Part shown: piece by piece, positions 12,259 through 37,676 of the stretch
Layout: the number at the start of each line of letters is the position of its first letter
Position numbering within the stretch: position 1 is the first letter of the stretch
NCBI GenBank assembly: GCA_030651175.1
Contig: JAUSCR010000116.1
Location: 1-40,520 of the forward strand
DNA length: 40,520 nucleotides
DNA from: Dehalococcoidia bacterium
GTDB taxonomy: Bacteria > Chloroflexota > Dehalococcoidia > Lucifugimonadales > SHYF01
Direction: 5' to 3'
Notes under the pieces: model-generated
Seen by the model: only the letters and a program-made list of their open reading frames with translations
The model's database searches: none
Told to the model about the DNA's origin: nothing
Made by a program: the position numbers and the translations under genes

Positions 12259-12260
12259 CT

Positions 12261-13138: not shown

Positions 13139-13156
13139 CCGTAGCGCCCGCTACGG
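13139..13156. repeat. Short palindrome CCGTAGCG-cc-CGCTACGG in the moeB leader
   Basis: Perfect 8-bp inverted repeat seen directly. Confidence 0.6.
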
Positions 13157-13191
13157 TGCACCCCGTCCCTGACCTCTCACACATAGGACAC

Positions 13192-13249
13192 AAAAAACCC
13201 CGAACTCACCCGCTCAGTCGCTACCGACCAAGCAACGGTTCTCGGGGTT
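13192..13249 (-). terminator. Long hairpin with U-tract (intrinsic terminator/attenuator) between rrf2 and moeB
   Basis: On the minus strand AACCCCGA...GGTCG-GTAG-CGACT...TCGGGGTT runs into a T-tract. Confidence 0.7.
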
Positions 13250-14666: not shown

Positions 14667-15608
14667 TCACGATGGTAGCTTTACCCCCACAAACCGCGGG
14701 TATCCCCTAAGAAACTCCTCCGCAGCCTGCGCCTTCCGGCCTTCCAGTTGAACCTCCGCCAAGCCCAGGAGGCCCTGGCCTGCGGCCACAGCCAGGGCGA
14801 AGGCGCTGCCCCTGGGCAGGGCCACAACCTGACCAGGGGGAGCTGTGGACACTTCGCCGGCGGCAGCGCCGTCCAGGACCTTCAAGAGCTTCCCTTCCCA
14901 GCGTGTGTAGCAGCCAGGCCAGGGTTGAAGGGCGCGCAGTCGCCTCTCCAGGACGGCGGCGGGCAGCGACCAGTCCATGTCACCGTCTTCCTTGGTGTAA
15001 AGCCTGGTAATGGTGGCCATCGCCTCCTCTTGAGGGACGGGTTTCAGTTCGCCGGCCGTCCACTTGGGCAGCACCTCCAATAGGAGCTCGGCTCCCAACC
15101 GGAATAGCCGGTGGGTAAGCTCCCCAGCGGTCTCGTGGGGCAGGATGGCTGTCTGCCGTTGAGCCAGAATGTTGCCCGTGTCCATGCCTTCGTCCAAGAG
15201 CATCACGGTGACGCCGGTAACGGACTCTCCATCCAGAAGAGCTGTTATCACCGGGGAAGGGCCGCGATACTTGGGTAGCAGCGAAGGGTGAATGTTCAAC
15301 ACGCCCCGGGGAGGGACGGCCAGCGCCTCCGGCGGCAGGATTCTGCCGTAGGCCGCCACCACGATGACCTCCGGTTGCAGCGACGCCAGTTCCCGCACCG
15401 CCTCCTCGCGCCTTAAGGAACGGGGCTGGAACACCGGCAGCCCCCGACTCAAGGCATAGGTCTTCACTGGGGGCGGCGCAGGCTGGCGACCACGCCCAGC
15501 AGGCTGGTCCGGCCTGGTGTATACCCCCACCAGTTGGTAGTCGCCGGTAAGCAGGCCCTCTATCACCGGAAGGGCGAATTCGGGAGTACCCATGAAGACA
15601 GTTCTCAT
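14667..15608 (-). CDS. fmt: Methionyl-tRNA formyltransferase
   Basis: FMGTPEFA, VAAYGRIL, NIHPSLLPKYRGPSP, GMDTG motifs. Confidence 0.97.
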   Translation of the reverse strand: MRTVFMGTPEFALPVIEGLLTGDYQLVGVYTRPDQPAGRGRQPAPPPVKTYALSRGLPVFQPRSLRREEAVRELASLQPEVIVVAAYGRILPPEALAVPPRGVLNIHPSLLPKYRGPSPVITALLDGESVTGVTVMLLDEGMDTGNILAQRQTAILPHETAGELTHRLFRLGAELLLEVLPKWTAGELKPVPQEEAMATITRLYTKEDGDMDWSLPAAVLERRLRALQPWPGCYTRWEGKLLKVLDGAAAGEVSTAPPGQVVALPRGSAFALAVAAGQGLLGLAEVQLEGRKAQAAEEFLRGYPRFVGVKLPS

Positions 15609-15801
15609 AGCTCACCTGGTGCCTATTCTATGGGAAAAGTGCGTTTGCAAACAACGGTTCGACTCGGCCAAAAACAGTCGGAAAACCCGTCAACTCCCCC
15701 CTTGCACCCCCCCAATGCCCTGGGTGGTATCGTGTCCCTGTTTTGAGTCTTACCCCTTTCGCAACACGCCGCGGGCAGGCGGCTCCAAAAGAAGAGGATG
15801 C

Positions 15802-17187
15802 ATGGCTTTAGGCCCCCAGCAAATTTGGGAGACGAGTCTCGGACAATTCCAGCTCCAAGTTCCTCGATCCAGCTACGACACCTGGTTTAGAGGGACTCAA
15901 GGAATCACCCTAGGGGAGGATTCGCTGACCGTCGCCGTGGCTACTTCATTTGCCGCGGAATGGTTGGAGCGGCGCATGTCCCCTCTCATTCACAAGACAG
16001 TTGCCGAGGTGGCGGCTCGGCCTCTTCGTGTCAGCTTCCAGGTCGTATCGGGCCAGGAGAGGCCGATCCCGGCCAATGGCGCTAAATCAGACCTGGCGAG
16101 GCCACCTTTGCTTTCCGAGGACGAGGCCCCCATCATACCGCTGTACGGCGAGGTGTTGGGGAACCATGTACTCAACCGCCGCTACACCTTCGCTAACTTC
16201 GTCGTTGGAAAAGACAACCAGCTAGCCCACGCCGCAGCTGCCGCTGTGGCCGACCATCCCGGCCAGCAATACAACCCTCTCTTTATCTACTCCGGCGTGG
16301 GCTTGGGCAAAACCCACCTCCTGCACGCTATTGCCTCTCATGTGACGCAAAGGAACTTGACACCAGTCTACGTTACGGCAGAGCAGTTCACAAACGAGTT
16401 CATCCTGGCAATCCGGGAACGGAAGACCGAAAGCTTCCGAGCCAAGTACCGCAGCGCCGACGTGCTCCTCATGGACGACATTCAGTTCCTGGCGGGCAAG
16501 GAGCAGACCCAGGAGGGGTTCTTCCATACCTTCAACGAGCTGCACAACGCCAACCGGCAGATAGTTATCACCTGCGACCGGCCTCCCAACTCCGTTGCGC
16601 TCCTGGCGGACCGGCTGCGCTCCCGCTTCGAAGGCGGGCTCATAGCCGATATTCAGCCACCCCAGCTAGAAACAAGGCTTGCCATTCTGCACTCCAAGGC
16701 CAACTCTTTGGGGGTTGATCTCAGTAGTGATGTGGCCATGAACATTGCCCGGCGTGCCGCGCACGGCATCCGGGAGCTAGAGGGCTATCTTAACCGTGTT
16801 GTGGCCATGGCGCAGTTCCTGGGCAGAGCCGTCTCTCCCGAGGTTGTAGACATCGCGCTTGCCTCCGTCGGCCAGGAGCCGAACACCAAAGCCGTTACCG
16901 CTACCGATGTGATCCAGCATGTTGCGACGTACTACAAAATCTCCCCAGATCGCCTTTGCTCCCGCCCTCAGGACAGGAAGACAACGCAACCGCAAAGGGT
17001 CACCATGTATATCCTTAGCAACGTGCTCCACCACACGCCACGGGAGATTGGAGTTCTATTGGGCAAATGGCATGAGAGGACAGTACGGAACACAGTAAAA
17101 CAAACGGGTGTTGCAGTTGCTCAAGGCAACCCTGTCGCCACAGAGGTTCGACAAATCCTGGCGGGCCTCTCAGTCCCGCTTGGCTAG
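15802..17187 (+). CDS. dnaA: Chromosomal replication initiator DnaA (divergent domain IV)
   Basis: YTFANFVVG, YNPLFIYSGVGLGKTHLL, DDIQFL, QEGFFHTFN, RLRSRF, IRELEG motifs. ATG 15802 follows AGAGG. Confidence 0.95.
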   Translation: MALGPQQIWETSLGQFQLQVPRSSYDTWFRGTQGITLGEDSLTVAVATSFAAEWLERRMSPLIHKTVAEVAARPLRVSFQVVSGQERPIPANGAKSDLARPPLLSEDEAPIIPLYGEVLGNHVLNRRYTFANFVVGKDNQLAHAAAAAVADHPGQQYNPLFIYSGVGLGKTHLLHAIASHVTQRNLTPVYVTAEQFTNEFILAIRERKTESFRAKYRSADVLLMDDIQFLAGKEQTQEGFFHTFNELHNANRQIVITCDRPPNSVALLADRLRSRFEGGLIADIQPPQLETRLAILHSKANSLGVDLSSDVAMNIARRAAHGIRELEGYLNRVVAMAQFLGRAVSPEVVDIALASVGQEPNTKAVTATDVIQHVATYYKISPDRLCSRPQDRKTTQPQRVTMYILSNVLHHTPREIGVLLGKWHERTVRNTVKQTGVAVAQGNPVATEVRQILAGLSVPLG

Positions 17188-17321
17188 CCAGCATCCTGCC
17201 TGGGACATTCCAGCACAATTCCCATCTGTTCCTCCTGCAACAACTCAGGCACAAGGCTGATTCTCTCATTTCCACCAACACCCCTATTACCTCTATTGTT
17301 AAACTAAAGTAATCTATATAT
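17188..17321. promoter_or_regulatory. Candidate oriC (dnaA-obgE intergenic region)
   Basis: TTTCCACCAACA-CCCC-TAT TAC CTC TAT TGT followed by AT-rich TAAACTAAAGTAATCTATATAT resembles the DnaA-box/GC-clamp/DnaA-trio unwinding layout. No perfect TTATCCACA box is present. Confidence 0.6.
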
Positions 17322-18587
17322 ATGTATGACATTCATGTAATTACCATCTCTGGAGGGAAAGGTGGAAATGGAAGCGTTGGCTTCCGTAGGGAGAAATATA
17401 TACCAAGAGGTGGTCCTGATGGAGGCGATGGTGGGAAAGGCGGCGATGTCCTTTTCATTGGGACTAGTTCAGTCAATGACTTATCTCATCTAGTTAGTGT
17501 CCCAAAGGCAGAGGGTGAAAATGCAGAGGGAGGATCTGGGAGGAAACGCAGTGGCCGGGATGGACAGGCGCGAAGCATACGTGTACCACTGGGGACAGTA
17601 ATCTGGGAAAGGAATGATTCCGGAACAACATGGTTAGGCGAAATTGTTAGCGAGGGAGACATTGTTGTAGCTGCACGTGGAGGGCACGGAGGCAGCGGCA
17701 ATAAACGGTTTGCCACACCCACAAACAGGACACCTTGGTTAGCTGAGGAGGGACTTCCTGGTGAGTTGAAGGAGGTTGTCTTAGAGCTGCGCATGAAAAT
17801 AGACGTTGGCATGATTGGAATGCCCAATGCGGGTAAGTCTCAGCTTCTTCAGAAGATCTCCATGGCGCGGCCGGAAGTTGCCAACTATCCTTTCACAACA
17901 ACTGAGCCTGCACCTGGCGTGGTAACGCACGGATGGAAAGAGTTTATCATCGCCGAACTACCCGGTATATTGCCGGAAGCAAATAAGAGCACCAGCCTGG
18001 GCCGCAGCTTTCTGCGGCACCTCTGGCGTGCCAGGGTAGTAGTCCATCTCCTTGACGGCTCTGTGGAAGAACCAACGGCAACGATTACCGGGGTTAACAC
18101 AGAGGTGGCTGCATTTGAGGCATCCTTTCTGCAAAAGCCGCAGGTCATTGTTGTGAACAAAATAGACCTACCAGAGGTTCGGAAGCGTATTCCAGTGCTC
18201 CGGCGCCAACTGGCTCACTATGGTGTAGCCAGACACTTCATCTCGGCGCAGACGGGAGAAGGGGTGGATGAGCTGGTGGAGTACCTTACCAAGCTGCTTG
18301 AGGAGACGCCGCCCGTGCCAAGTCCACTTCCTCCGCCTGTGGTGGTCCCTGTGCTTCACCAGGCTCGCCCAGCCGAGCCGCAGGTAGTCAGAGATGGGCA
18401 AGTGTTTGTGGTATTATCCCCCCAAGCCGAACGAATTGTCAGGCTTCCAGACCTAAGACGTTTCCAGGCAAGGCTACAGCTCCGCAGACAGCTGGCGCGA
18501 ATGGGAGTGACAGGAGCGCTAGAGAAAGCCGGGGTGCAGCCAGGAGACACGGTTAGGATAGGGGTGGTGGAGATGAAGTGGGAATGA
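17322..18587 (+). CDS. obgE: GTPase ObgE/CgtA
   Basis: Gly-rich Obg fold (FRREKYIPRGGPDGGDGGKGG), GMPNAGKS, YPFTT, NKID, C-terminal GVQPGDTVRIG. Confidence 0.93.
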   Translation: MYDIHVITISGGKGGNGSVGFRREKYIPRGGPDGGDGGKGGDVLFIGTSSVNDLSHLVSVPKAEGENAEGGSGRKRSGRDGQARSIRVPLGTVIWERNDSGTTWLGEIVSEGDIVVAARGGHGGSGNKRFATPTNRTPWLAEEGLPGELKEVVLELRMKIDVGMIGMPNAGKSQLLQKISMARPEVANYPFTTTEPAPGVVTHGWKEFIIAELPGILPEANKSTSLGRSFLRHLWRARVVVHLLDGSVEEPTATITGVNTEVAAFEASFLQKPQVIVVNKIDLPEVRKRIPVLRRQLAHYGVARHFISAQTGEGVDELVEYLTKLLEETPPVPSPLPPPVVVPVLHQARPAEPQVVRDGQVFVVLSPQAERIVRLPDLRRFQARLQLRRQLARMGVTGALEKAGVQPGDTVRIGVVEMKWE

Positions 18588-19247: not shown

Positions 19248-19353
19248 GGGGGATTGCTAAGGGGGCACGCCCCCTTAGCTGAGGGTCTGGGGGACACCCC
19301 CAGATTTCCTCTTTTCCCCCTCTCCTGCAGGAGAGGGGGCCAGGGGGTGAGGT
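19248..19353 (+). repeat. Composite multi-hairpin REP/MITE-like repeat, copy 1
   Basis: GCTAAGGGGG-CACG-CCCCCTTAGC, TCTGGGGG-ACA-CCCCCAGA, CCCCCTCTCCTGCAGGAGAGGGGG..AGGGGGTGAGGT. Confidence 0.8.
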
Positions 19354-21043: not shown

Positions 21044-21988
21044 TTGTTCAAAGCAAAGGTATCCAGCGCCAGGAAGCCTTACGACCGCACAGCCGCCAAG
21101 CGTGCGGTGCGCATTAGCCTGGGCATCTCGGCCGTTTTCTTTCTCATCGAGGCCATTGGCGGGTGGCTGACCAACAGCCTGGCCTTGCTGGCCGATGCGG
21201 GGCACGTGCTGACCGATGTGGGGGCCCTGGGCATGACATTGCTGGCCTTCTGGTTCGCGGCTCGGCCTGTTAGCCCGGCCCGTACCTACGGCTACTTCCG
21301 GGCGGAGGTTCTGGCCGCTCTGGCCAACGGCCTCAGTGTGTGGCTGGTGGCGGCGTTCATACTGCTCCAGGCGTACCGCCGCCTCATGGACCCACCGGAG
21401 GTCCTTAGTGGCCCCATGGTCGTCATTGCTTTCCTGGGGTTGCTGGCCAACTTGGCCGCAGCCCTGGTGCTGTACGGCTCATCCAAGGAAAGCCTCAACG
21501 TCCGCGCTGCCTTTGTCAATGTGGCCACCGACGCCGTGCAGTCCGTGGGTGTGATCATCGCGGGGTTCCTAATGCTTTTCTTCGGGTGGTACATCACAGA
21601 CCCCGTCGTCAGCGTGATCATCGCCGTGCTAATCACCTATTCGGGGGGCAGGATAGTGCTCCAGGCAACGCACGTTTTGCTGGAGGGGACGCCTGCCGGC
21701 ATAGACGTGGTGGGTCTTCAGGATGCCCTGCGGCAGGCACCGGGGGTGCGCGCCGTTCACGATCTACATACCTGGAGCATCACATCCGGCTACAACGCCA
21801 TGAGCGCCCACGTTACCTTGAAGGACGAAGTCAGCCACGAAGAGGAACAGGGGGTCCTGAGCCATCTACGAGAGGTGGCAACAACCCAGTACGGCATAGG
21901 CCATGTAACCATTCAGCTTGAAAGCGGCTCCATGGCTGGCGAAGAGGACCATGAACCTGCGACTGGCCGTGCCAAAGATAGCCGGTAG
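21044..21988 (+). CDS. Cation diffusion facilitator (CzcD/ZitB-like)
   Basis: SLALLADAGHVLTD, TYGYFRAEVL, VHDLHTWSITSG, HVTIQLE motifs. Confidence 0.94.
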   Translation: MFKAKVSSARKPYDRTAAKRAVRISLGISAVFFLIEAIGGWLTNSLALLADAGHVLTDVGALGMTLLAFWFAARPVSPARTYGYFRAEVLAALANGLSVWLVAAFILLQAYRRLMDPPEVLSGPMVVIAFLGLLANLAAALVLYGSSKESLNVRAAFVNVATDAVQSVGVIIAGFLMLFFGWYITDPVVSVIIAVLITYSGGRIVLQATHVLLEGTPAGIDVVGLQDALRQAPGVRAVHDLHTWSITSGYNAMSAHVTLKDEVSHEEEQGVLSHLREVATTQYGIGHVTIQLESGSMAGEEDHEPATGRAKDSR

Positions 21989-22009
21989 CCTGCTTTGGAG
22001 CTTCCCCGA

Positions 22010-22702
22010 ATGACCGACAAAGCGAACACGCCTCGCGTTACGGGCCTCTTCGTTGTCTTGGCGGCCCTGTTTGTTACCATGCTCATCGCCTCCAACGTCA
22101 TCGCCGTCAAGCTCATCCAGGTGTGGGGCCATCCCTTGTTCGCGGCCATCGTCGTGTTTCCCATCACCTACATCCTGGGCGACATCCTGACGGAGGTGTA
22201 CGGCTTTCGCTTTGCCCGCCGGGTCATCTGGCTAGGGTTCCTTTGCAATAGCTTGGCGGTGTTGGGCTTCTGGCTTGGGGGACTCCTTCCGCCGGCGGTT
22301 TTTTGGCAGGGCCAGGAGGCCTATCAGACGATTCTGGGATCCACTCCCCGCATCCTGGCTGCCTCCTTGGCCGCCTACCTGGTGGGCGAGTTCACCAACT
22401 CTTTGGTCCTCTCCCGCATGAAGGTTGCCACGCGGGGGCGATGGCTCTGGACACGCACCATCGGCTCCACCGTTGTGGGCGAAGGCGTGGACTCCCTGGT
22501 CTTCGCCACGGGAGCACTGGCAGGCACTCTACCTGGTAGCGTCTTGCTGGATGTGTTGCTGACCCAGTGGATTGCCAAGGTGCTGTACGAGACGGCGGCG
22601 ACTCCCTTCACATACGCTGTTGTAGCCTGGGTGAAGCGCCACGAGGGCATTGACACCTATGACCGGCAGGTCTCCCTGAACCCCCTGGCATTTCTAAGGT
22701 AG
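22010..22702 (+). CDS. yhhQ: Queuosine precursor transporter (YhhQ/VUT family)
   Basis: ASNVIAVK, FPITYILGDILTEVYG, RILAASLAAYLVGEF, WTRTIGST...DS motifs. Confidence 0.92.
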   Translation: MTDKANTPRVTGLFVVLAALFVTMLIASNVIAVKLIQVWGHPLFAAIVVFPITYILGDILTEVYGFRFARRVIWLGFLCNSLAVLGFWLGGLLPPAVFWQGQEAYQTILGSTPRILAASLAAYLVGEFTNSLVLSRMKVATRGRWLWTRTIGSTVVGEGVDSLVFATGALAGTLPGSVLLDVLLTQWIAKVLYETAATPFTYAVVAWVKRHEGIDTYDRQVSLNPLAFLR

Positions 22703-22755
22703 GCAGGCTGCTGAAAATGGGGGAGTCCAGAGGGGGCGGAAGCCCCCTTGGCAGG
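22703..22755 (+). repeat. Composite repeat, partial copy 3 (left end and first hairpin only)
   Basis: GCAGGCTGCTGAAAATGGGGGAGTCCAGAGGGGGCGGAAGCCCCCTTGG matches the start of the 29672 copy. Confidence 0.75.
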
Positions 22756-22797
22756 CCGCAGTTACCTGAGGACAACCCCTGCGCCCTTACTGGCTAG

Positions 22798-23010
22798 CTA
22801 GCCCTTGATGTATTGATTTAGGGTTTTCTTCCAGTACCTTCGGACTTTGGTTCCATCTTTCCAAGTAAAAGTGGTGTCGTCGCAGTGGTTGATTAGTTGA
22901 GAAAAGTCCTGGATAATCTGGATAATATCCCTTCGCGTAGAATTGGCCTGTTGAACTGCATCCATCCTTGTGTGCTCTGCGTTTGCTATTGCATACCAAT
23001 GATGTGGCAT
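22798..23010 (-). CDS. Small hypothetical protein (70 aa), AT-rich
   Basis: Strong AAGGAG RBS before ATG 23010; MPHHWYAIANAEH...YWKKTLNQYIKG; no recognised family. Confidence 0.6.
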   Translation of the reverse strand: MPHHWYAIANAEHTRMDAVQQANSTRRDIIQIIQDFSQLINHCDDTTFTWKDGTKVRRYWKKTLNQYIKG

Positions 23011-23127
23011 TGAATTACTCCTTTCCGTGAGATTCCTCACCCCATAAAGCTTACGATTATGCTTGGCGAGCTTCCAAGACTGCGCTGGACCCAATTTGCC
23101 TCGGAGCGTTGGTTCAAGAGTCAGGAA

Positions 23128-23230
23128 GGTGCAGGGAACCTTGGTTCCCGCTGGGGGTCTGGGGGTATCCCCCAGATTTCTTTCTTCCCCCTTCCTGGCC
23201 AGGAAGGGGGTCGGGGGGATGGTCGAAGAA
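23128..23230 (+). repeat. Composite multi-hairpin repeat, copy 4
   Basis: GGGGGTCTGGGGGTATCCCCCAGA...CCCCCTTCCTGGCCAGGAAGGGGG...GGGGGATGGTCGAAG is nearly identical to 29722-29798. Confidence 0.85.
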
Positions 23231-23246
23231 GTGCTTTAGGAACCCC

Positions 23247-23462
23247 CTACCCCTTCCGCGCCGTCTCCACTATGGGCTGCGCTATTATCCACAAGCTCAC
23301 CATGGTGTACCCCACCATCAGCGCCAGCATGGGGTACTGGCTCCGCAAGGCGGCCTTCCTGTCCTCCAGCGTTCTCATGGCCACCACGTGGGCCACGTAC
23401 ACCGCAATTATGTGGCCGGTCACAATGGCGGCCACCGCCGTGAACCAGGCGATGCGGGCGCA
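23247..23462 (-). pseudogene. 3' remnant of a membrane-protein gene
   Basis: Host-like GC-rich codons encode ARIAWFTAVAAIVTGHIIAVYVAH...RSQYPMLALMVGYTMVSLWIIAQPIV. The frame is cut by AT-richer DNA at about 23465, with an in-frame stop at 23490-23492. Confidence 0.7.
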
Positions 23463-23481
23463 AATGAGACGGGACCTATGA

Positions 23482-23871
23482 CTATGCTTTCAACTCTTCT
23501 ACCGCGACTATATATCGTATAAATTGGAGATATTTCTCCACCTCAGCAAACTCACTCTCGCTGACCAAAAGTGTGTAAGGTTCATGCACCGGCAAAGCTT
23601 TAATACTCGGTAAAGGCGCGAGATATCGCGTGAGGGCAGCGGGAAGTAGTAGGTAATCGGGGTGAGTGTCAAGTGCCTTAGCTAACTTGAGCAGTACTCC
23701 TGGACGTGTTGGTGTCAGCGTTCCGCACTCAATCTTAGAAAGGGTCTTATAAGGTACTCCCGCTTCTTTGGCTAGGCGCGTGACTGTCCAATCCCTTCCC
23801 AGTCTGAGCTGCTCGAGCTTCTTGCCAAGTTCGGTTTGCCTAGGTTTAGTTCGCCGCCCTCTTTTTGCCAT
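23482..23871 (-). CDS. XRE/Cro-C1 HTH transcriptional regulator, probably leaderless
   Basis: LGKKLEQLRLGRDWTVTRLAKEAGVPYKTLSKIECG...LLKLAKALDT. Confidence 0.9.
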   Translation of the reverse strand: MAKRGRRTKPRQTELGKKLEQLRLGRDWTVTRLAKEAGVPYKTLSKIECGTLTPTRPGVLLKLAKALDTHPDYLLLPAALTRYLAPLPSIKALPVHEPYTLLVSESEFAEVEKYLQFIRYIVAVEELKA

Positions 23872-23935
23872 CGCTCAATAATAAAGCGATGGAGTCTTGA
23901 CAGTCAACAATATATCTCATACACTGGCGATATAT
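23868..23935. promoter_or_regulatory. Back-to-back sigma70 promoters with two operator-like inverted repeats
   Basis: Plus strand: TTGACA (23897-23902), 17 nt, TACACT (23920-23925). Minus strand: TTGACT (23907-23902), 18 nt, TATTAT (23883-23878). Inverted repeats CCATCGCT/AGCGATGG and ATATATC/GATATAT bracket the two -10 boxes. Confidence 0.75.
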
Positions 23936-23983
23936 GAAGCCTCTTGCACATCCGAGTGAATGCAGTTAGGATGGAGGCTCTCA

Positions 23984-24406
23984 ATGGCTATATCAGGTGG
24001 GAAAATGAGTATGTCTGGCGATTATTGGGACTATGTCAATGCACTGTCGTATGCCTTGGCAAAGGGAACGCCTAAAACACCACAACGTTTCACTGGCGAT
24101 CCGATGCAATGGCATCAAGCCATGTATGAGCTGCTACCACGATACAAAGATCGCCTTCCGGTTTTCCGCCACATTGTTTTTGATACTACCCCAGGCAGGC
24201 AGCCATTCAGCGCTGAGGTGGATCATTTCCTACACGTCCTTGCCCAATCGAGGTTACTGAGCGCTCTTAATACGGCATATGCGGTATTTGAATTTAGCGA
24301 TAAGCAAAAAGAGACGATAATCCGCCTGAACGAGAAGCGAGTAAAGCAATACGAAGGCGTTTTGGAGGAGTTAGGAAGGGAGTTGGCTGCGAAGGTTCTG
24401 GTATAA
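23984..24406 (+). CDS. Hypothetical protein, possibly winged-helix (YwgA/Panacea-like)
   Basis: GGAGG RBS before ATG 23984. The segment PFSAEVDHFLHVLAQSRLL resembles the GPYSxEL..L..L...GL motif (weak, by eye). Confidence 0.7.
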   Translation: MAISGGKMSMSGDYWDYVNALSYALAKGTPKTPQRFTGDPMQWHQAMYELLPRYKDRLPVFRHIVFDTTPGRQPFSAEVDHFLHVLAQSRLLSALNTAYAVFEFSDKQKETIIRLNEKRVKQYEGVLEELGRELAAKVLV

Positions 24407-24415
24407 GGCGAGGCC

Positions 24416-25966
24416 ATGCCACTCCCTAGTTCGACGGTTACTGTGGAGAGTCTTAGAGCGGAGATTTCAGACTACGTCAGTGAACGGTTCGATGGGTTCG
24501 TTCCAAATCCCCAGAACTCCAATCACCACGCAGATGGAAAGGTAATTCGAGACCCAATTCACGGGTTTCATCACCTGAAAGCATGGGAGGTCGAGGTCGT
24601 AGACTCCCCTCTCTTACAGCGGCTCCGGTCAATTCACCAAAATGGCCTTGTCTTCCTCGTTTATCCTAGCGCGAATCATTCGCGTTTTGAACACAGCCTC
24701 GGTGTGGCGAAGGTAATTCAAGACGTCGTTGGGGAATTAAACACCCCGGGCTTGTTCAGTGAAACAACCGTTGGGGAACTACGGCTAGCGGCACTTCTCC
24801 ACGATTCAGGACATGGTATCTTTTCTCATCTGTCTGAGACACTAATCTATGAGCGGTGGTACGACAATTTCCAGCCCATTAGGCAGATTGCTCCGTTCCA
24901 AGGAAAGACTGTGGGAGAGATAGTGTCGTATCTCCTTGTGACAAGTCCACGATTCCGAGCATTTCTTGAGGATATTAACTCTCGCTACAACCAGAATTTC
25001 AATGTTGATCGTATAGCTGGGTTGATTGTGGGCAACGTGCAAAATCCAACTATGGAGGCCTACCAGCGAGACCTAATCACAGGACCCCTTGATGCAGACA
25101 AACTCGACTATATCGCACGCGATTCTTGCTTTACAGGTATTAGAGCCGAGGTTGACGTTCCACAGATTATTCGCTCCATGAAAGTGTGGGATAGAAGCGG
25201 TTCAAGGTTCCCACGGTCTCTAGTAGTAAAGGTGCAGGGGGTTAGCTTCATCGAGCAGATGCATTTTGCGCGACTGTTATTGTACCCAGCCATGTATCAT
25301 CACCAAAAGGTGCGTGCTATAGAGTGCATGGTGCGGGGAATTTTCGACACTATCTGGGCGGCACCCGATGAAATCCGGGAGCCTGTTCTGAAATTTAGCC
25401 GTATTACTGACTTCCTGCGGCTGACTGAGGGTGAATTCCTTGCCCTTGCCTCCCGAGAACCCTTAATACGCCAACAAATCGAAAAGTTACAGAATCGGAC
25501 TCTTTTTCGTAGGGCCTTACAGGTTTCGGCGTCTTTGATTAGAGGAGAGGTAGAATCAACTCGTTACAGCGACCTCGTAGGGTTGGGCAAGTTCACCCCA
25601 GAAGCCTCAGCCCGACTTAACGAAATACGTAAGACAATCTACGATTTAATCCCGGCGGCGGCGAAGACTGATAGGACATTAAACGACATCTGGGTAGACG
25701 TACCGGATCAGCCTAGTGCCAAAGACATGGAGCTTTGTAAAGTCGATACTGGGGAGTCTGAGCCGGTTCCACTAGACACATTGTTCCCCTTGGCCTCCTG
25801 GCTTAAGGGTTATGCTGAAAACAAATGGACTGCTCATGTTTACGGCTATCCGGACGAAGCTTTTCTCACTAGCCTTAATCGCGCCACCACTGAATATTTC
25901 AACAGTGAGTACAGTCTTACATTCCAAGATAGAGCTACCACTGAATGTAAGCTGACCCTTAGATAA
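24416..25966 (+). CDS. HD-domain dNTP triphosphohydrolase-like protein (SAMHD1/YwfO family)
   Basis: IRDPIHG, LQRLRSIHQNG, YPSANHSRFEHSLGV, ALLHDSGHGIFSHLSE, DADKLDYIARD, YHHQKVRA motifs. Confidence 0.92.
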   Translation: MPLPSSTVTVESLRAEISDYVSERFDGFVPNPQNSNHHADGKVIRDPIHGFHHLKAWEVEVVDSPLLQRLRSIHQNGLVFLVYPSANHSRFEHSLGVAKVIQDVVGELNTPGLFSETTVGELRLAALLHDSGHGIFSHLSETLIYERWYDNFQPIRQIAPFQGKTVGEIVSYLLVTSPRFRAFLEDINSRYNQNFNVDRIAGLIVGNVQNPTMEAYQRDLITGPLDADKLDYIARDSCFTGIRAEVDVPQIIRSMKVWDRSGSRFPRSLVVKVQGVSFIEQMHFARLLLYPAMYHHQKVRAIECMVRGIFDTIWAAPDEIREPVLKFSRITDFLRLTEGEFLALASREPLIRQQIEKLQNRTLFRRALQVSASLIRGEVESTRYSDLVGLGKFTPEASARLNEIRKTIYDLIPAAAKTDRTLNDIWVDVPDQPSAKDMELCKVDTGESEPVPLDTLFPLASWLKGYAENKWTAHVYGYPDEAFLTSLNRATTEYFNSEYSLTFQDRATTECKLTLR

Positions 25967-26063
25967 GCTAGTCTTGTGTACGACATCTCAGCCGGAAGGC
26001 CATTTCCCCTTTCGTTTGATTGCCATTGTTACCGATGCCTCCGGCCCGAAATATGCAACACGC

Positions 26064-26927
26064 TCATTTTACAGCATTGTGGAACCGGCGCAGGGCATCC
26101 AGGTGTTGCTTTAGGGAGGTGAAGCCCGCGCGCATGGTGTTCACCGACAGGTGGGTAGCCCCTAGCTTCTGCCAGTCTGCCGCTGTCTTGGCCCAGTCTT
26201 GCGGGATGGAGTCCTGAACGCCGATTCGCGCCTCCACTCCAATTTTGGCCGGGTCCCGGCCAGCCTCTTGCGCATAGCCACGCATACGCTCCAGCATTTG
26301 CTGGACCTCCTCGGTGGGGGGCATTTGCGGGAACCAGCCGTCCCCCAGCCGGCCCACTCTTTTGAGGAGCGGTTCCGCCCTTCCGCCAAGCCAGATGGGT
26401 ATGGGGCGCTGCACTGGCAGAGGGTTAATCCCTGCCGCCGTAACCTTATCCCACCGGCCCTTGAATGTGACGACCTCCTGAGTCCATAGTGCCCGCATGA
26501 GAGCTATCTGCTCCTCGCTGCGGCGGCCCCGGGTGTGGAAGTCCTGGCCCAGGGCTTCGTACTCTATTGTGTTCCATCCGGTCCCTATGCCCAGGCGCAG
26601 CCGCCCGCCTGTGAGGACGTCTACCTCTGCCGCTTGTTTGGCCACCAACACTGTTTGGCGCTGCGGCAGGATGACGATGCTTGTCACCAGCTCCAGCCTC
26701 TTCGTGAGGGCCGCCAGGTATCCGAACAGCACAAAAGGCTCGTGGAACTGGGACTTGTGGTCGTAAGGCCCACGGTAGCCCTCATGCTGGGCCGGATCAG
26801 CCCCTACCACGTGATCGAAGATCACAAGATGGGCATACCCCATTTCTTCCACGGCCTGGGCGTACTCCCGTACAACCGCCGGGTCGGGGCCAAGCTCTGT
26901 TTGGGGGAAGACAACACCTAGTTTCAC
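26064..26927 (-). CDS. LLM-class F420-dependent oxidoreductase
   Basis: FDHVVG, HEPFVLFGYLAA, LVAKQAAEVDVLTGGRLRLGIGTGW, PVQRPIPIWLGG, GDGWFP motifs. TATAAT -10 at about 26962-26967. Confidence 0.93.
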   Translation of the reverse strand: MKLGVVFPQTELGPDPAVVREYAQAVEEMGYAHLVIFDHVVGADPAQHEGYRGPYDHKSQFHEPFVLFGYLAALTKRLELVTSIVILPQRQTVLVAKQAAEVDVLTGGRLRLGIGTGWNTIEYEALGQDFHTRGRRSEEQIALMRALWTQEVVTFKGRWDKVTAAGINPLPVQRPIPIWLGGRAEPLLKRVGRLGDGWFPQMPPTEEVQQMLERMRGYAQEAGRDPAKIGVEARIGVQDSIPQDWAKTAADWQKLGATHLSVNTMRAGFTSLKQHLDALRRFHNAVK

Positions 26928-27054: not shown

Positions 27055-27477
27055 TTAGCCGGCCCTCAGCTCCTCTTCCGTCACCTGCCCGTCCGTGATC
27101 CTGTAGGCCCGTACTACCGGGTTATCGTGGTCCATCAGCGAAATCAGGACGTAGTAGGTGTCCGGCCAGGTGGACACACCATCCCAGGTGGCGATCCGCA
27201 CATCAGTGGCCGAAGGATACGCTGGAGAGTGTGTATGGGAGTGGTAGATGACCAGCGGATCAGGGTCCCATCTGTTCTGGCGTGCCTCTTGCAAGACCTC
27301 ATACACCTTTTTGGGATCCATATCGTACCGGTATGGGCTCGCAGCCGTATTGGTCATGCGATAGAGCTTGGTTGCCTTGCCCTTCCGTCCAGTAATGAAA
27401 CCGCAGCACTCGTTGGGGTTGTCCTCCAGCGCGTGAGCTATCATCTGGTCAACGTACTGCTTCCCTAGCTCCAGCAT
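27055..27477 (-). CDS. mec: JAMM/MPN+ (M67) peptidase, Mec-like sulfur-carrier-cysteine peptidase
   Basis: PNECCG...YHSHTHSPAYPSATD is the E-x-HxH-x7-S-x2-D JAMM motif. Confidence 0.88.
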   Translation of the reverse strand: MLELGKQYVDQMIAHALEDNPNECCGFITGRKGKATKLYRMTNTAASPYRYDMDPKKVYEVLQEARQNRWDPDPLVIYHSHTHSPAYPSATDVRIATWDGVSTWPDTYYVLISLMDHDNPVVRAYRITDGQVTEEELRAG

Positions 27478-27534
27478 GGCTTCATGGAACTCCTGAGCGG
27501 TTATGTATCTAAACCCCCGCTGGTCGGCAGGATC

Positions 27535-28581
27535 CTACGGAAGCACCTGAATGGCCCCGGCGCTTCTTTGGGATACCTCGCCAATGATTGCGACGCCAGC
27601 AACGCCGTGTTTCTCCAGCTCCTCCAAGAGCCGGTCCAAGCGCTCCCGTGGCACTGATATCAACAGCCCGCCGGAGGTCTGCGCATCGCTGAGGATAACC
27701 TTTGCCTCTTTGGAAAGCGATTCATGGTAGTTCACCTTGGGCCCCAGAGAGGCCAGATTTCTATGGGTGCCCCCGGGGGCGATTCCCGCTTCGGCCAGCT
27801 CCAGTAGGCCAGGTAGCAAAGGTATTTTGGACCAGAAGACTCGGGCGGCGGTGCCGCTGGCTGTCATCATAGGTTTCAGGTGGCCCAGCAGCCCGTAGCC
27901 TGTTACATCCGTGCAGGCGTTGACGCCCACGTGCATCATGGCCTCCGAGGCGCCCTTGTTCAGCATTTCCATGACAGCGATGGCGTTGGCCAGCACCTCT
28001 TCCTTCACCACGCCGTTCTTTCCAGCGGTGGTGATTATGCCCGTGCCGATGGGCTTGGTGAGCACAAGCACATCTCCGGGCCTGGCGTTGCGGTTAGTCA
28101 CCTGGTCGCCGGGTCGGATTATGCCTGTTACGGCCAGGCCGTATTTTGGCTCCTTGTCGTCTATGGTATGGCCGCCCACGATGAGGAGGCCGGCCTCGGC
28201 GGCTTTTCTGTAGCCGCCCTTCAAGATATTGGCCACAATGTCCTTGGACAGCTCCATGGGAAATGCCACTATGTTCAGCCCAAGCAGGGGCCGTCCGCCC
28301 ATGGCGTACACGTCGCTTACAGCGTTGGCCACCGCAATAGCGCCAAAGTGGTCAGGGTCGTCTACTATGGGAGGGAAGAAGTCAACCGTTTGCACCAGGG
28401 CAAGGTCATCCGTCAGGCGGTAGACGGCAGCGTCATCGCCTGTCTCAGTCCCGACCAGCAGGTTCGGGTCGGTGATCGTTGGTAGCTGGCGCAGAACCTG
28501 CGCCAGGTCCTCAGGACTGTACTTGGAGGCTCAGCCCGCGCAATGGGCCAGGCTGGTGAGGCGGATAGCTTCCTGGGGCAT
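27535..28581 (-). CDS. selD: Selenophosphate synthetase, a selenoprotein (in-frame UGA = Sec17 at 28533-28531)
   Basis: AAGGAG RBS, then MPQEAIRLTSLAHCAG-TGA-ASKYSPEDL...GDDAAVY...QTVDFF...GGHTI...TDVTGYGLLGHL...DAQTSGGLL. The ORF track captured only the part after 28395. Confidence 0.95.
28484..28530 (-). promoter_or_regulatory. Candidate bacterial SECIS element
   Basis: Hairpins just 3' of the UGA: CTGGCGCAG-GTT-CTGCGCCAG (28506-28486) and the alternative GGACCTG-GCG-CAGGTTC. Confidence 0.6.
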
Positions 28582-28616
28582 AGACTCCTTCCTGTGTCAG
28601 GTTGGGAACAGTACCT

Positions 28617-28625
28617 ATTGTAGCA
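28617..28625 (-). promoter_or_regulatory. Extended -10 promoter TGcTACAAT upstream of selD
   Basis: Seen on the minus strand about 35 nt upstream of the selD ATG. Confidence 0.6.
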
Positions 28626-28664
28626 TGGGTTGTTGCACGGCTCGCGGGCGTGCGGCCAGGAGCT

Positions 28665-29606
28665 TCACAGGTTCAGCATGGGATACCGCTCGCCTGTATC
28701 GGGCAGCACAGTTACCACCACCTTGCCCTCGCCCAGTCGCTGCGCCACCCGCAAGGCAGCCAGGACGTTGGCCCCAGAAGAAATGCCCACCAGTAGCCCC
28801 ATCTCCTGGGCCAGCCGCTTGGTGGTGGCTATGGCATCCTGAGTGGTGACTGTGACTATCTCGTCAATGATGGCGCGGTCCAGCAGGGTGGGTATGAAAT
28901 CGGCCCCAATGCCCAAAATACCGTGGTCGCCCGCGTGGCCCTGGCTCAGCAGCGGAGACGTAGCTGGTTCCACGGCCACCACCAGCACTGATGCGCTAAC
29001 GGCTTTCAGCGCCTCGCCCACGCCTGTGATGGTGCCGCCCGTTCCAACACCAGCCACGAAGGCATCCACACGGCCAGAGGTCGCATCCAGGATCTCCCTT
29101 CCTGTGCCTTCTCGATGCGCCTTCGCATTGGCGGGGTTGGTGAACTGCTCCAGCATCACCATCCCGCGGTCCTGGTCAAGCATGCGCCGGGCTGCCCGCA
29201 TGGCCCCCTCCATGCCCAGGTGAGCCGGCGTGAGATGTACCGTCGCTCCGAAGCGCGCCACCAGACGCCGCCGCTCCAGGGGCACGCTCTCTGGCATGGT
29301 TATGGCCACCCGGTATCCCTTGGCTGCCCCCACCAGCGCCAGAGAGATGCCCATGTTGCCGCCGGTAGGCTCAACAATAGTCATGCCAGGCATCAGCCTG
29401 CCCTGAGCTTCAGCGTCCTGGATCATGGCCAGGGCCGCGCGGTCTTTGGTGCTGCCGCCGGGGTTCAGGCTCTCCAGCTTGGCCAGCACCTGCGCCGAGC
29501 CGGGCGTCTCCAGGGCGCGCAGGCGCACCAGGGGCGTGTTGCCTATGAGTTCAAGGACGGATTCGGCAATCCTGGTCAAGGTAGGTCTCCTCAGCAGATG
29601 GCCCAT
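28665..29606 (-). CDS. cysK: CysK-like PLP cysteine synthase with altered substrate loop
   Basis: IGNTPLV, NPGGSTKDR, QFTNPAN, GVGTGGTITG, GISSGAN, PDTGERY motifs. The substrate loop reads EPTGGNMG. Start 29606 or 29633. Confidence 0.85.
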   Translation of the reverse strand: MGHLLRRPTLTRIAESVLELIGNTPLVRLRALETPGSAQVLAKLESLNPGGSTKDRAALAMIQDAEAQGRLMPGMTIVEPTGGNMGISLALVGAAKGYRVAITMPESVPLERRRLVARFGATVHLTPAHLGMEGAMRAARRMLDQDRGMVMLEQFTNPANAKAHREGTGREILDATSGRVDAFVAGVGTGGTITGVGEALKAVSASVLVVAVEPATSPLLSQGHAGDHGILGIGADFIPTLLDRAIIDEIVTVTTQDAIATTKRLAQEMGLLVGISSGANVLAALRVAQRLGEGKVVVTVLPDTGERYPMLNL

Positions 29607-29671
29607 TGTGGCATGGGTGGTTGGGAGCGTCAAGGAAAGAGGAGCGTGGTAACATATGCTATCTCACGCAC

Positions 29672-29800
29672 CTAGCAGGTTGCTGAAAAAGGGAAGTCCA
29701 GAGGGGCGAAGCCCCTTTGGTGGGGGTCTGGGGGTATCCCCCAAATCTCTCTCTTACCCCCTTCCTGGCCAGGAAGGGGGCTAGGGGGATGGTCGAAGAG
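29672..29800 (+). repeat. Composite multi-hairpin repeat, copy 5 (most complete)
   Basis: CTAG-CAGGTTGCTGAAAAA followed by the three hairpin modules. Confidence 0.85.
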
Positions 29801-35394: not shown

Positions 35395-35970
35395 GTGAGA
35401 ACAGTTGCTATAACAAGGCGGCGCATCGCCACGCGGCGCATTGATGTCCAGGTGTTTCCGGCATTTCGCCGGCAGCTCACCGTGCCCTGGCTACGCCGAG
35501 TGGCGAAGGAGGCGCTGGCTGCCGGGGCCTCCTCTGCTCCTGGCGAGGACACACCCAGAGCCGCCTACCGCAGCCTGAGCCTGGTCATAGCCGATGACGC
35601 CACCATCCTGCGACTGAACCGCGACTACCGCGGCCTGAACGAAACCACCGATGTCCTGGCCTTCGCCTCGGACCACGCCGGTGAGTACGAAGGCGATGGC
35701 ACACCTCCGCCTTCCGAAAGTAACGAACAATTCATCACCGCTCCTGAAGAGGAGGGGTTTGCAGGCGAGGTCATTGTCTCCTATCCCCAGTGCCTCCGTC
35801 AGGCCGCCGAGCATGGCCATTCCGCATCCCAAGAGCTGGCACTCCTGATCACGCACGGCGTGCTGCACCTGCTGGGATATGACCATGCCACACCGGAGGA
35901 GGAGCAGGCGATGAATGCCAGGACGCAAACAGCCCTTGCGACGCTGGGTTTGGCCGAGGTGGTCCAGTGA
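35395..35970 (+). CDS. ybeY: rRNA maturation endoribonuclease YbeY
   Basis: LNRDYRG..TTDVLAF, HGVLHLLGYDH motifs. GTG 35395 lies 7 nt after TGcTATTAT, so it may be leaderless. Confidence 0.93.
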   Translation: MRTVAITRRRIATRRIDVQVFPAFRRQLTVPWLRRVAKEALAAGASSAPGEDTPRAAYRSLSLVIADDATILRLNRDYRGLNETTDVLAFASDHAGEYEGDGTPPPSESNEQFITAPEEEGFAGEVIVSYPQCLRQAAEHGHSASQELALLITHGVLHLLGYDHATPEEEQAMNARTQTALATLGLAEVVQ

Positions 35971-37676
35971 CCAACCAGGTCTACTACCGCCGGTGGAGAC
36001 CCCAGCGACTGGCTGACCTGGTGGGACAGGAGCCTGTGGCCCGCACCCTGAAACAGGCCATCCTCAGGAAGCGGATAGCCCACGCCTATCTGTTCTGCGG
36101 CCCCAGGGGCACGGGCAAGACAAGCACGGCCAGGATCATGGCGAAGGCTGTCAACTGCCTGAATCCCCAGGACGGCGAGCCATGCAACGCCTGCCGCCTT
36201 TGCCAGGCCGTCAACGAAGGTCGTGCCCTGGACCTGGTGGAGATAGACGCCGCCAGCAACCGCGGTATAGACGAGGTCAGGAGCATCCGGGAGAAGGTGA
36301 ACTACGCCCCTGCCGAAGGCGCATACAAGGTCTACGTCCTGGACGAAGCCCACATGCTCACCGATGCCGCCGCCGATGCCCTCCTGAAGACACTGGAGGA
36401 GCCGCCGGCCCACGTCATATTCATCCTGGCCACCACGGAACCCCATAAGCTTCCCGGCACCATTGTCTCCCGCTGCCAGCGGTACGACTTCCACCGCATC
36501 ACGCCGGCGGCCATGGCCGAGCGGCTGGCGCAAATATGTCAGGCGGAGGGCATCGTCGCTGACCCTGCCGCATTGCATGCCCTGGCCCGCAACGCCGCAG
36601 GAAGCCTCCGGGACGCGGAGAACCTACTGGAGCGGGCCGTCACATCCCTTGGGACTCCCCTGGGACTGGAGCAGGTGCGACTGCTCTTGGGGCTGGCCAG
36701 CGAAGAGCGCGTCCGTGCCCTGGTGGGCCACATCCTGCACGGGCGGGTCCCTCTGGCCCTGACACTGCTCAACGCCATGGCCGCCGAAGGACTGGACCTG
36801 CGCCAGCTTCACCGGCAGATGGTGGACGAGCTACGGGAGCTTCTTCTACTCAAGTCCGGCGCTCCCGAGATGGTGCCCCAGGCAGAGGAGGTGTTGCGGG
36901 AACAGTCCGCCCTCATAGCCCAGGTAACTTTGGATCGCCTGCTCCACACCATGAGACTCATGGGCCAGGTCAACTTCCGCAACGATACGCCCACATCTCT
37001 TCCCCTGGAGCTGGCGATGATAGAAGCGGCCCAGGGCGATGCCCCCAGGGAGAGCAGCGCCTCTAACGCGGCTCGTCCTGCCACTGGCGGCATGGCAGCC
37101 GCATCATCGTCTGTGGCGTCTGCGGCCCGCCGTCCCACTGCCAGTGCGCCAGCGGCACAGCAGGCGGCTCGCCGGCCCGTGCCAGCGGCTCCATCGGCCC
37201 GCTCTCAGCCTCCCGCTGCTCCGGCGCCATCCCCACTTCCACCAACGCCATCTCCGGAGGCAAGTCCGGCCAGGGCGCAAACCAGCTCTGACCCAGCGGT
37301 TCGCCTGGAACAGGAGTGGGATGGTATCATCAGGACGCTGAGTCGGCTGAGTCGCCAGAAATATCGCAGGTTTAACCCGGGTGCCCTGCTCCGCAATTGC
37401 CGCCAGCGCCGCCTGGAGGGCGATACCCTGGCCCTGGAGTTTACTCACCGCAACTACATGGAGCGCATGAAAGAGGAGATGGACAATCCGGAGAGCCGCC
37501 GGAATGTTCTGGATGCGATAATCGCCGCCCTAGGTATCACCACTCCTCTGAACCTAACGTACACAGCTCCCAACGGGCCGGATAGCACCGATAAGCCCCG
37601 TCAAAGCCCGCTGGTGCAAGCCGCTCTGGGAATGGGTGGTAAGATATTGGAAGAAGCCGAGGAGCGTCATGAATAG
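35967..37676 (+). CDS. dnaX: DNA polymerase III subunit gamma/tau
   Basis: YRRWRP, GPRGTGKTS, PCNACRLC, EIDAASN, LDEAHML, LLKTLEEPP, SRCQ motifs. Confidence 0.97.
   Translation: MTNQVYYRRWRPQRLADLVGQEPVARTLKQAILRKRIAHAYLFCGPRGTGKTSTARIMAKAVNCLNPQDGEPCNACRLCQAVNEGRALDLVEIDAASNRGIDEVRSIREKVNYAPAEGAYKVYVLDEAHMLTDAAADALLKTLEEPPAHVIFILATTEPHKLPGTIVSRCQRYDFHRITPAAMAERLAQICQAEGIVADPAALHALARNAAGSLRDAENLLERAVTSLGTPLGLEQVRLLLGLASEERVRALVGHILHGRVPLALTLLNAMAAEGLDLRQLHRQMVDELRELLLLKSGAPEMVPQAEEVLREQSALIAQVTLDRLLHTMRLMGQVNFRNDTPTSLPLELAMIEAAQGDAPRESSASNAARPATGGMAAASSSVASAARRPTASAPAAQQAARRPVPAAPSARSQPPAAPAPSPLPPTPSPEASPARAQTSSDPAVRLEQEWDGIIRTLSRLSRQKYRRFNPGALLRNCRQRRLEGDTLALEFTHRNYMERMKEEMDNPESRRNVLDAIIAALGITTPLNLTYTAPNGPDSTDKPRQSPLVQAALGMGGKILEEAEERHE

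Follow-up and report, generated by a model that had tools for sequence, protein, structure and literature searches.

The window analysed here, a stretch of 40,520 nucleotides from a Dehalococcoidia bacterium (assembly GCA_030651175.1, contig JAUSCR010000116.1, positions 1 to 40,520), carries a horizontally acquired islet in which a gene for an XRE-type regulator is transcribed away from a small open reading frame (ORF) and an HD-domain gene directly downstream of it. Our characterization of this islet reveals that the HD protein is a full-length phosphohydrolase of the SAMHD1/EF1143 type with an intact active site, and that the small ORF is its conserved, co-inherited and tightly coupled partner, whose product belongs to a family that is new to the libraries used. 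The enzyme is probably a deoxynucleoside triphosphate (dNTP) triphosphohydrolase, as judged from its motifs and predicted fold. We tentatively put first, at somewhat less than even confidence, the reading that the pair and the XRE protein form a mobile, regulated nucleotide-depletion conflict module; a link between dNTP hydrolysis and chromosome replication is its serious rival.

The islet is an acquired insertion

The XRE gene lies at 23482–23871 on the minus strand (129 amino acids, HTH_3 by Pfam), the small ORF at 23984–24406 on the plus strand (140 amino acids, no database model) and the HD gene at 24416–25966, also on the plus strand (516 amino acids, PF01966 and PF19276). Only 9 nt separate the stop codon of the small ORF from the start of the HD gene, and a terminator-like hairpin followed by a T-rich tail (25993–26014, plus strand; a consensus match only) stands 27 nt past the HD stop codon. 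The GC contents of the three genes are 0.495, 0.478 and 0.489, respectively, whereas the flanks have 0.604 and 0.613 and the whole 2.48-Mb genome has 0.592; each of the three proteins is encoded once in this genome. A preliminary description of this DNA, made from the letters alone, had pointed to a compact, AT-richer islet of these three ORFs with the XRE gene divergent and the other two 9 nt apart. All of this agrees with our results except the extent, since the inserted stretch (22754–26063, 3.3 kb) is larger than the three genes that had been delimited.

This inserted stretch has no counterpart in G002, a genome of the same genus. Its borders are a queuosine-precursor-transporter-like Vut_1 gene (21995–22702) and a luciferase-like monooxygenase gene (26064–26927); in G002 the same two genes are about 200 bp apart, and the gap is filled by an intact copy of a dispersed repeat with a unit of about 130 nt. 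In the window, the repeat in this intergenic space is split into a left part (22716–22753) and a right part (23152–23240) by a 398-bp insert (22754–23151, 49% GC) that carries an ORF of 70 amino acids (22798–23010, minus strand) with an AAGGAG ribosome site. To the right of the split repeat follow about 2.8 kb, made up of a GC-rich stretch (0.63) directly downstream of the XRE gene, with a doubtful hydrophobic ORF of 62 amino acids (23247–23435, minus strand), and then the three genes. The HD gene was found in neither of two same-genus genomes (89% and 71% complete), and four of 38 genomes of the same order have HD relatives, which are distant (32–38% identity). Because the GC content is 0.48–0.50 instead of 0.59, the 3.3 kb are missing in G002 and the HD gene was not found in the congeners, we conclude that the islet was horizontally acquired; the possibility, raised at the outset, that the HD gene is a vertically inherited core gene does not agree with these results. 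Independently assembled Logan contigs of run X1, possibly the source sample, span both outer junctions (22400–23160 and 23430–26400) at similar depth and are interrupted between them only at the high-copy repeat, and we regard the join across this repeat as correct because both flanks are syntenic in G002.

The dispersed repeat has a palindromic G/C core, gives 298 blastn matches on 116 of the 199 contigs of the genome and is present in dozens of copies in both congeners; further copies in the window lie at 19280–19347 and 29721–29799. Short-read assemblies break at it (depth 1614, compared with about 25). One Logan contig links 22737 to 23153 and thereby skips the 70-residue ORF, and probably represents another copy of the repeat. 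That ORF belongs to no family and has no homologue in the fetched loci or elsewhere in the genome, and was dropped as a candidate member of the module for want of a homologue in any fetched locus. The 62-residue ORF was dropped likewise: it is a single copy with no homologue in the fetched loci or the rest of the genome, is possibly a gene remnant and is uncertain as a real gene. Within the GC-rich stretch downstream of the XRE gene, a perfect TTATCCACA occurs once, at 23285–23293, which is chance level by shuffles. No Rfam family or tRNA was detected within or near the islet. A CDF cation-efflux gene (21044–21988) adjoining the islet has no syntenic counterpart in G001 or G002, where a repeat copy stands instead, and is thus a second difference in gene content.

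The HD protein is a SAMHD1/EF1143-type phosphohydrolase

The HD protein matches two Pfam families, PF01966 (HD; E-value 2.7e-7, 31.3 bits against 22) and PF19276 (HD_assoc_2; 2.7e-15, 56.9 bits against 23.1). The closest sequences of solved structure are 2q14, 2hek, 9mr6, described in its report as a fungal SAMHD1 (PMC12042053), human and mouse SAMHD1, and EF1143. With a profile of 40 homologues, the E-values reach 2.3e-51 for 2hek and 4e-44 for SAMHD1. The motifs DPIHG, D..QRLRYIxQ, HxRFEHSLGV, HDxGHGxFSH, DxDKxDYxxRD and YxHK are shared with SAMHD1. The metal ligands and catalytic histidines (H93, H129, D130, D228, H133 and H138) align with those of SAMHD1 and are invariant in the 40 homologues, and the substrate motifs (Q75, R90, D226–D236 and Y294–K298) and the D..QRLR allosteric motif (D63, Q68 and R71) are present, the assignment of individual residues to SAMHD1 sites following the residue numbers that we take to apply to SAMHD1.

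The AlphaFold model of the protein (pLDDT 93.1, pTM 0.92) matches 9mr6, 6u6z, 4bzb and 2o6i with E-values of about 1e-16 and TM-scores of 0.61–0.68 over 487–516 columns. The early assignment of a SAMHD1-like HD protein with the H..HD..D metal set and the Q/R substrate motifs is thus borne out by the fold over the whole length and by the invariance of these residues. The long C-terminal region that had also been remarked on is real but is not an extra domain; because the model matches SAMHD1/EF1143 over 487–516 columns, it is the normal lobe of this enzyme class. These observations establish the protein as a full-length SAMHD1/EF1143-type HD phosphohydrolase.

An intact active site may nevertheless serve another substrate, such as ribonucleotides, a signalling nucleotide or a nucleic acid, and the cassette would then deplete no dNTPs. 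In SAMHD1, a leucine next to the substrate glutamine helps to exclude the ribose 2'-OH; this position is occupied by N76 in the HD protein and by T in the consensus of the family, and two oligonucleotide-bound SAMHD1 entries, 6u6z and 6u6x, are among the top fold matches. All the remaining catalytic and substrate motifs of SAMHD1 are kept, however, and the nucleotide-salvage genes found beside relatives of the enzyme (see below) favour deoxynucleotides, so that we consider a different substrate quite improbable, the least likely of the alternatives weighed here. The protein is therefore regarded below as a probable dNTP triphosphohydrolase. Among plasmid and phage records, HD relatives were only partial and distant, and none covered 80% of the query.

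The small ORF is a conserved partner of the enzyme

To examine the pairing, we used 240 HD loci (80 genome, 80 metagenome and 80 viral contigs), collected with alignment queries, as a single-sequence query found none in genome or metagenome contigs, together with three loci found by the small protein alone; an iterated small-protein profile was then run against their six-frame ORFs. In 86 of these 243 loci, the small ORF immediately precedes the HD gene on the same strand. It was found in 72 of the 96 loci with a full-length match to the enzyme and in 14 of the 147 with a partial match, and three of the 24 full-length loci without a partner begin less than 200 nt from a contig end. When the search was made from the side of the small protein, it led to G140, G557 and a second copy in G440, and an HD gene adjoins each of them. 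A candidate start of the HD gene overlaps the stop codon of the small gene or lies at most 20 nt from it in 66 of 81 pairs, by crude start calling.

The pairing follows the phylogeny of the enzyme. The HD tree was built from 224 sequences that passed a coverage filter (210 after the removal of identical ones), and a single branch sets apart 100 rows that include all 76 with the partner. An inner clade with an SH-aLRT support of 97 comprises 73 rows, 68 of them with the partner, and the other side, with archaeal, giant-virus and Vibrio-type enzymes, has the partner in none of its 110 rows. The partner label changes seven times over the tree, compared with 62 times in shuffles. As relatives share labels, the tree shows co-inheritance and does not count independent events. 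The proposal that the small ORF and the HD gene are a conserved pair thus stands, and their layout, in which a larger gene follows a small one to which it is tightly coupled, resembles that of type II toxin-antitoxin systems.

Genes upstream of the partner-less archaeal enzymes are of a different kind. They are unrelated to the small protein (hhalign probability 0.1), and the HD gene is directly preceded, on its own strand, by a thymidylate-kinase-like gene, so named from our reading of its P-loop motif (33 ORFs in the cluster; L052–L094, Nitrososphaeria and others). In Bacillus subtilis, ywfO–ywgA also places an HD phosphohydrolase beside a small protein, and a literature search gave nothing on that pair. 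The acidobacterial genome G440 carries two diverged copies of the pair, on C12 and C36 (L176 and L177).

The small protein is a predicted winged helix outside known families

The start of the small ORF at 23984 is preceded by GGAGG at 8 nt; an alternative ATG at 23960 would give 148 amino acids. A word-indexed search of 5.8 billion clusters found three relatives of its product, and an exhaustive search found 36 representatives of the family at E ≤ 1e-3. None of these 36 matches any Pfam family, helix-turn-helix (HTH) families included. The small protein has no match in PADLOC or NCBIfam and none among the sequences of the Protein Data Bank (PDB), where the best value was 0.019 (TssA); a PHROG match was obtained for one of 61 members and is weak (0.002), and Foldseek returned nothing for the model from the PDB or BFVD at E ≤ 0.001. 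The family is thus new to the libraries used, without a Pfam, PHROG, PADLOC or PDB relative. No fused longer forms were found, which is weak evidence.

The AlphaFold model, built on an alignment of 61 sequences (pLDDT 89.5, pTM 0.82), displays a winged-helix core (helices at residues 17–28, 40–54 and 77–88 and a hairpin to residue 104) followed by two C-terminal helices. The best VIA-align matches are winged-helix domains of plant NLRs, which are of the protein-contact type (Z 5.8–6.4); the next matches (Z 4.5–5.6) are ORC, JetB/MksE-like proteins, SarS (5.5), RTP (5.2), Crp/Fnr (5.2), GntR (4.7) and PadR (4.5). All these Z scores are below 8, the range of common arrangements and not of relatives. 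Model and fold matches agree with the winged-helix-like call made from the letters, which had been offered as weak. The accompanying suggestion of a Panacea-type domain fails by profile search: SocA/Panacea (PF13274) is matched by none of the 36 members at E-values up to 1, and no PF13274 match occurs in the genome. What remains is a weak lead, with a Panacea protein in BFVD (E 0.37, TM 0.46/0.50) and, by a language model, Atlas clusters with 20–21% Panacea-carrying members (0.84–0.87). The language-model score of the PF27231 MJ1567 family against the small protein is 0.91, likewise a lead only. The protein was also rejected as a Clover-type Pol-beta nucleotidyltransferase, given the lack of a Pfam match and the winged-helix model.

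A winged helix at the head of an operon may simply be a transcription factor that autoregulates the operon without touching the enzyme, so that the pairing would reflect regulation only. The solved folds nearest to the model include DNA-binding winged helices (SarS, RTP, Crp/Fnr, GntR and PadR), and the copy in the window has a pI of 8.8. In the family as a whole, however, the pI is mostly low (median 6.0; below 6.5 in 57 of 88 members), the third helix is poor in K/R (0.075, compared with 0.168 for D/E) and so is the wing (0.06), none of 36 members matches an HTH family, the top folds are those of protein contacts with no Z score reaching 8, the two genes are tightly coupled at start and stop, and a separate XRE gene is present here and in ten other pair loci. 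We therefore think a mere autoregulator improbable, if somewhat less so than a different substrate of the enzyme. Because its third helix and wing are poor in K/R and richer in D/E and the pI is mostly low, the small protein is read, on the strength of the model and composition, as a protein- or ligand-binding winged helix rather than a DNA reader.

A divergent XRE gene and its control region

The XRE protein matches PF01381 (HTH_3; E-value 3.7e-10, 40.1 bits against a cut-off of 23) and the PADLOC models HTH_VI (2e-7) and capH (5e-7). It consists of an HTH domain (residues 14–76) and a short C-terminal motif, SExE..EL..YL.FLR, that is common to most XRE proteins flanking the pair in other loci. 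A homologous XRE gene lies divergently upstream of the pair in ten of these (L015, L017, L019, L027, L043, L078, L095, L096, L107 and L171), among them the two nearest relatives of the window, L095 and L015, whose enzymes form a clade with that of the window (support 100).

Between the XRE gene and the small ORF is a divergent control region of 112 nt (23872–23983), with promoter-like sites that are consensus matches: TTGACA-17-TACACT on the plus strand (23897–23925) and TTGACT-18-TATTAT on the minus strand (23907–23878). Both sites overlap on the palindrome TTGACAGTCAA, and an 8-nt inverted repeat, CCATCGCT/AGCGATGG, is found at 23868–23892. This arrangement suggests that the palindrome or the inverted repeat may be the operator of the XRE protein, which would then control the operon.

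In the only other pair-bearing genome of the phylum sample described below (L014, G140:C53), the divergent ORF upstream encodes 148 amino acids and looks, as read from the sequence, like a different HTH protein; the genes downstream are unannotatable, including one for a 689-residue protein with a GHKL-ATPase-like N-box.

Distribution, neighbours and proximity to the replication origin

The pair is rare and scattered. It was found in one of 400 other genomes of the phylum and, in the acidobacterial order to which G440 belongs, in one of 150 genomes with a completeness of 90% or more. By tree labels it occurs in Chloroflexota, Acidobacteriota, Pseudomonadota and Actinomycetota, and by record titles also in Gemmatimonadales, Tepidisphaeraceae and Syntrophobacteraceae; within the HD clades, the taxa are mixed.

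Neighbours were scanned in 29 of the 32 genome loci with the pair known at the time (two ORFs on each side, 112 ORFs; L027, L034 and L087, in which the ORF caller did not resolve the pair, were left out) and in 18 of the 22 metagenome loci of at least 6 kb (about 5 kb, 96 ORFs; of the remaining four, two are near-duplicates, L099 and L143, and two, L095 and L107, had a scan of their own). Several further pair loci were scanned outside both sets. Defence genes beside the pair include HmaA (L035) and a type III restriction enzyme (L046) among the genome loci, and a type I-E CRISPR-Cas system (L117), type I restriction-modification specificity genes with an integrase (L121) and Schlafen/MORC-like ATPases (L126) among the metagenome loci. 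Genes of mobile elements are also found: two integrases (L118), insertion-sequence transposases (L107 and L171) and a Mu-like transposase (L051). In L178, a predicted viral contig and the sole pair among the 80 viral loci, the pair is accompanied by an integrase, a reverse transcriptase and a Rep protein.

Other neighbours point to nucleotide metabolism. In L129, a deoxynucleoside kinase gene (4099–4959, minus strand) lies directly downstream of the pair and an ATP-cone/uridine-kinase-like gene upstream; these kinases and the pair could form a cycle of deoxynucleotide hydrolysis and salvage. Given this kinase and the thymidylate-kinase-like genes of the archaeal loci, the HD family sits in dNTP metabolism.

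The islet also lies near a probable origin of replication. In the window, 6.3 kb separate the islet from dnaA (15592–17187), and dnaX, ybaB and recR lie on its opposite side (region 35967–39895); obg is carried by the window as well. A local minimum of GC skew is located next to dnaA, with a dip to 48% GC at 17150–17450. The chromosomal origin is therefore probably within a few kilobases of the islet, but we do not claim a mapped oriC because the skew fails to remain positive and the window has no excess of DnaA boxes (four matches to the Escherichia coli consensus, compared with 4.7 expected). In other genomes, the distance between dnaA and the pair is about 8 kb (L047), 13 kb (L048), 15 kb (L064) and 28 kb (L021), or larger, with 106 kb (L022), 215 kb (L032), 300 kb (L030) and 0.94 Mb (L027). 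Origin-region neighbours include gyrA (L017), gyrB (L018 and L029), dnaN (L040 and L078), yidC with mnmE (L026, L140 and L146) and yidC with jag (L051).

A further set of genes in the window is unrelated to the islet. A Fic/DOC-domain ORF (7261–7743, minus strand) preceded by an ORF of 90 amino acids (7848–8120, minus strand) and a PIN-domain ORF (38865–39284, plus strand) are possible toxin-antitoxin genes. Genes of the sulfur-carrier type are found in two places, for a PLP-dependent synthase and a ThiF-like E1 (11236–13193) and for a JAB/MPN protease, an AIR-synthase-like protein and a cysteine-synthase-like PLP enzyme (27055–29633); the PADLOC E1–E2 matches to the ThiF-like protein are generic.

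A candidate module for nucleotide depletion

We propose that the islet is a horizontally acquired cassette in which the divergent XRE repressor would control an operon of two genes, the predicted SAMHD1/EF1143-type dNTP triphosphohydrolase and the translationally coupled winged-helix protein just upstream. The small protein may be a subunit dedicated to regulation that contacts the enzyme or a ligand, and not DNA, and would restrain or gate dNTP hydrolysis, as the preliminary description had also suggested, while the cassette as a whole would starve invading DNA of dNTPs, a nucleotide-depletion defence that is possibly toxin-antitoxin-like. We infer the dNTPase activity, the binding between the two proteins, any toxicity, the way in which one regulates the other and the part played in defence, the last of which is plausible. 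A conflict module is favoured because of the rarity and mobility of the pair, its mobile and defence neighbours, the XRE switch, and the precedents of the dGTPases and Clover.

Several observations weigh against a defensive role. PADLOC finds no defence system in the 40-kb window around the islet, no known defence model fits the pair, and nothing in PADLOC matches the small protein. The HD protein was accordingly rejected as a dGTPase of the PADLOC/DefenseFinder type, as it lacks a full-length match: the PADLOC model PDLC02374 matches residues 87–143 only (50 of 395 positions, E 2.3e-4), and the TIGR01353 score of 17.9 bits is below the cut-off of 152. Strong defence genes accompany the pair in about five of the 47 scanned loci (L035, L046, L117, L121 and L126; a raw count), and the neighbours in other genomes are mostly housekeeping genes. 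On the partner-bearing side of the tree, 17 enzymes form a clade with no detectable partner gene, so the enzyme can work alone. Finally, origin-region genes occur in the scanned flanks of nine loci, about as frequently as defence genes, dnaA lies less than 30 kb from the pair in four of the eight genomes that have it on the same contig, and in the window itself the islet stands between dnaA and the dnaX–recR region. Of the defence system named in the preliminary description, what survives is a minority of loci with defence or mobile neighbours, as no PADLOC system fits and origin housekeeping genes are about as frequent.

The placement near dnaA leads to the serious rival already mentioned, in which an accessory housekeeping dNTPase trims the dNTP pools with replication, the small protein tunes it and there is no role in phage defence. 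This would fit the origin-proximal bias in the window and in other genomes (including the gyr, dnaN and yidC neighbours) and the dNTP-metabolism neighbours, and a Dgt-type dNTPase of Caulobacter is described as promoting replication initiation (PMC12186491). The rarity of the pair (one of 400 and one of 150 genomes), however, is unlike that of a housekeeping function, both congeners lack the HD gene, and the low-GC insertion and the mobile-element neighbours speak for acquisition. The origin-proximal loci, moreover, are not independent, as five acidobacterial loci form one HD clade and L017, L018 and L029 another. Insertion hot spots are found near origins in Dehalococcoides, and such hot spots could yield the same pattern. 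On this balance we rate replication-linked dNTP control as unlikely, although clearly ahead of autoregulation by the small protein and of a different substrate. If it were true, landing by dnaA, dnaN, gyrA/B or yidC would be functional and not accidental.

Behind the conflict module by a little, we place a more specific proposal: that the small proteins are a new family of dedicated regulators of SAMHD1-like dNTPases, and that the pair is a mobile two-subunit depletion system, with an XRE switch in some lineages, that serves anti-phage or toxin-antitoxin-like immunity or is coupled to replication initiation.

Comparison with known systems

The depletion of dNTPs is an antiviral strategy common to animals (SAMHD1) and bacteria (dGTPases, dCTP deaminases and Clover), and how dNTP-depleting enzymes are kept harmless is a current question. 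Our results bear on it, as an uncharacterised protein constantly accompanies the bacterial enzymes whose fold is nearest to that of SAMHD1. The enzyme family was already known, whereas neither its partner family nor the two-gene module, with or without the XRE gene, was found in the libraries used or in the literature searched; the supplementary tables of the dGTPase and Clover studies might list the subfamily. In addition, the origin bias of a rare, mobile module raises the question of whether dNTP hydrolysis is tied to initiation.

The closest likeness is to SAMHD1 itself (human, mouse and fungal, 9mr6) and to EF1143 of Enterococcus faecalis (2o6i/3irh), which share with the HD protein the fold over about 500 residues, the metal ligands, the catalytic histidines, the substrate motifs and the D..QRLR motif of the guanine site. 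Identity is nevertheless only about 20–22%, the HD protein has no SAM domain and carries PF19276, and N or T replaces L after the substrate glutamine. A small partner gene stands beside the HD gene here, whereas none is known for SAMHD1 or EF1143.

In its arrangement the pair is most similar to Clover, likewise a two-gene module, in which, according to the available part of its report, an HD dNTPase (CloA) has as its partner the nucleotidyltransferase CloB, which is presumed to hold it in check (PMC12265719). The Clover partner is described there as making an inhibitory nucleotide, whereas the partner here is a 140-residue winged-helix protein without an enzyme motif; the Clover enzyme also belongs to another subfamily, and an XRE repressor is present here. 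AvcID, as outlined in PMC10511110, keeps a nucleotide-pool enzyme in check by a co-encoded antidote, and with type II toxin-antitoxin pairs the pair shares its gene layout. In AvcID, however, the antidote AvcI is an RNA and the enzyme a deaminase, whereas the pair here consists of two predicted proteins. If the small protein binds and gates the enzyme, control would be protein-based, whereas Clover relies on a nucleotide signal and AvcID on an antidote RNA.

Bacterial dGTPases are reported to defend by dNTP depletion (Tal et al., bioRxiv 10.1101/2021.04.26.441389). These Dgt-family enzymes, including the Vdg octamers as presented in PMC13519002, are of the HD superfamily and deplete dNTPs, as is proposed for the enzyme here, but they are single-gene, Dgt-type systems, the PADLOC dGTPase model and TIGR01353 of which do not describe the HD protein. 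Caulobacter FssC, also a Dgt (PMC12186491), is a dNTPase that, to judge from its report, links a bacterium's dNTP hydrolysis to replication initiation, and the origin-proximal placement found here agrees with such a link; FssC is encoded by a conserved gene of the Dgt type and has no partner protein, whereas the pair described here is rare and mobile.

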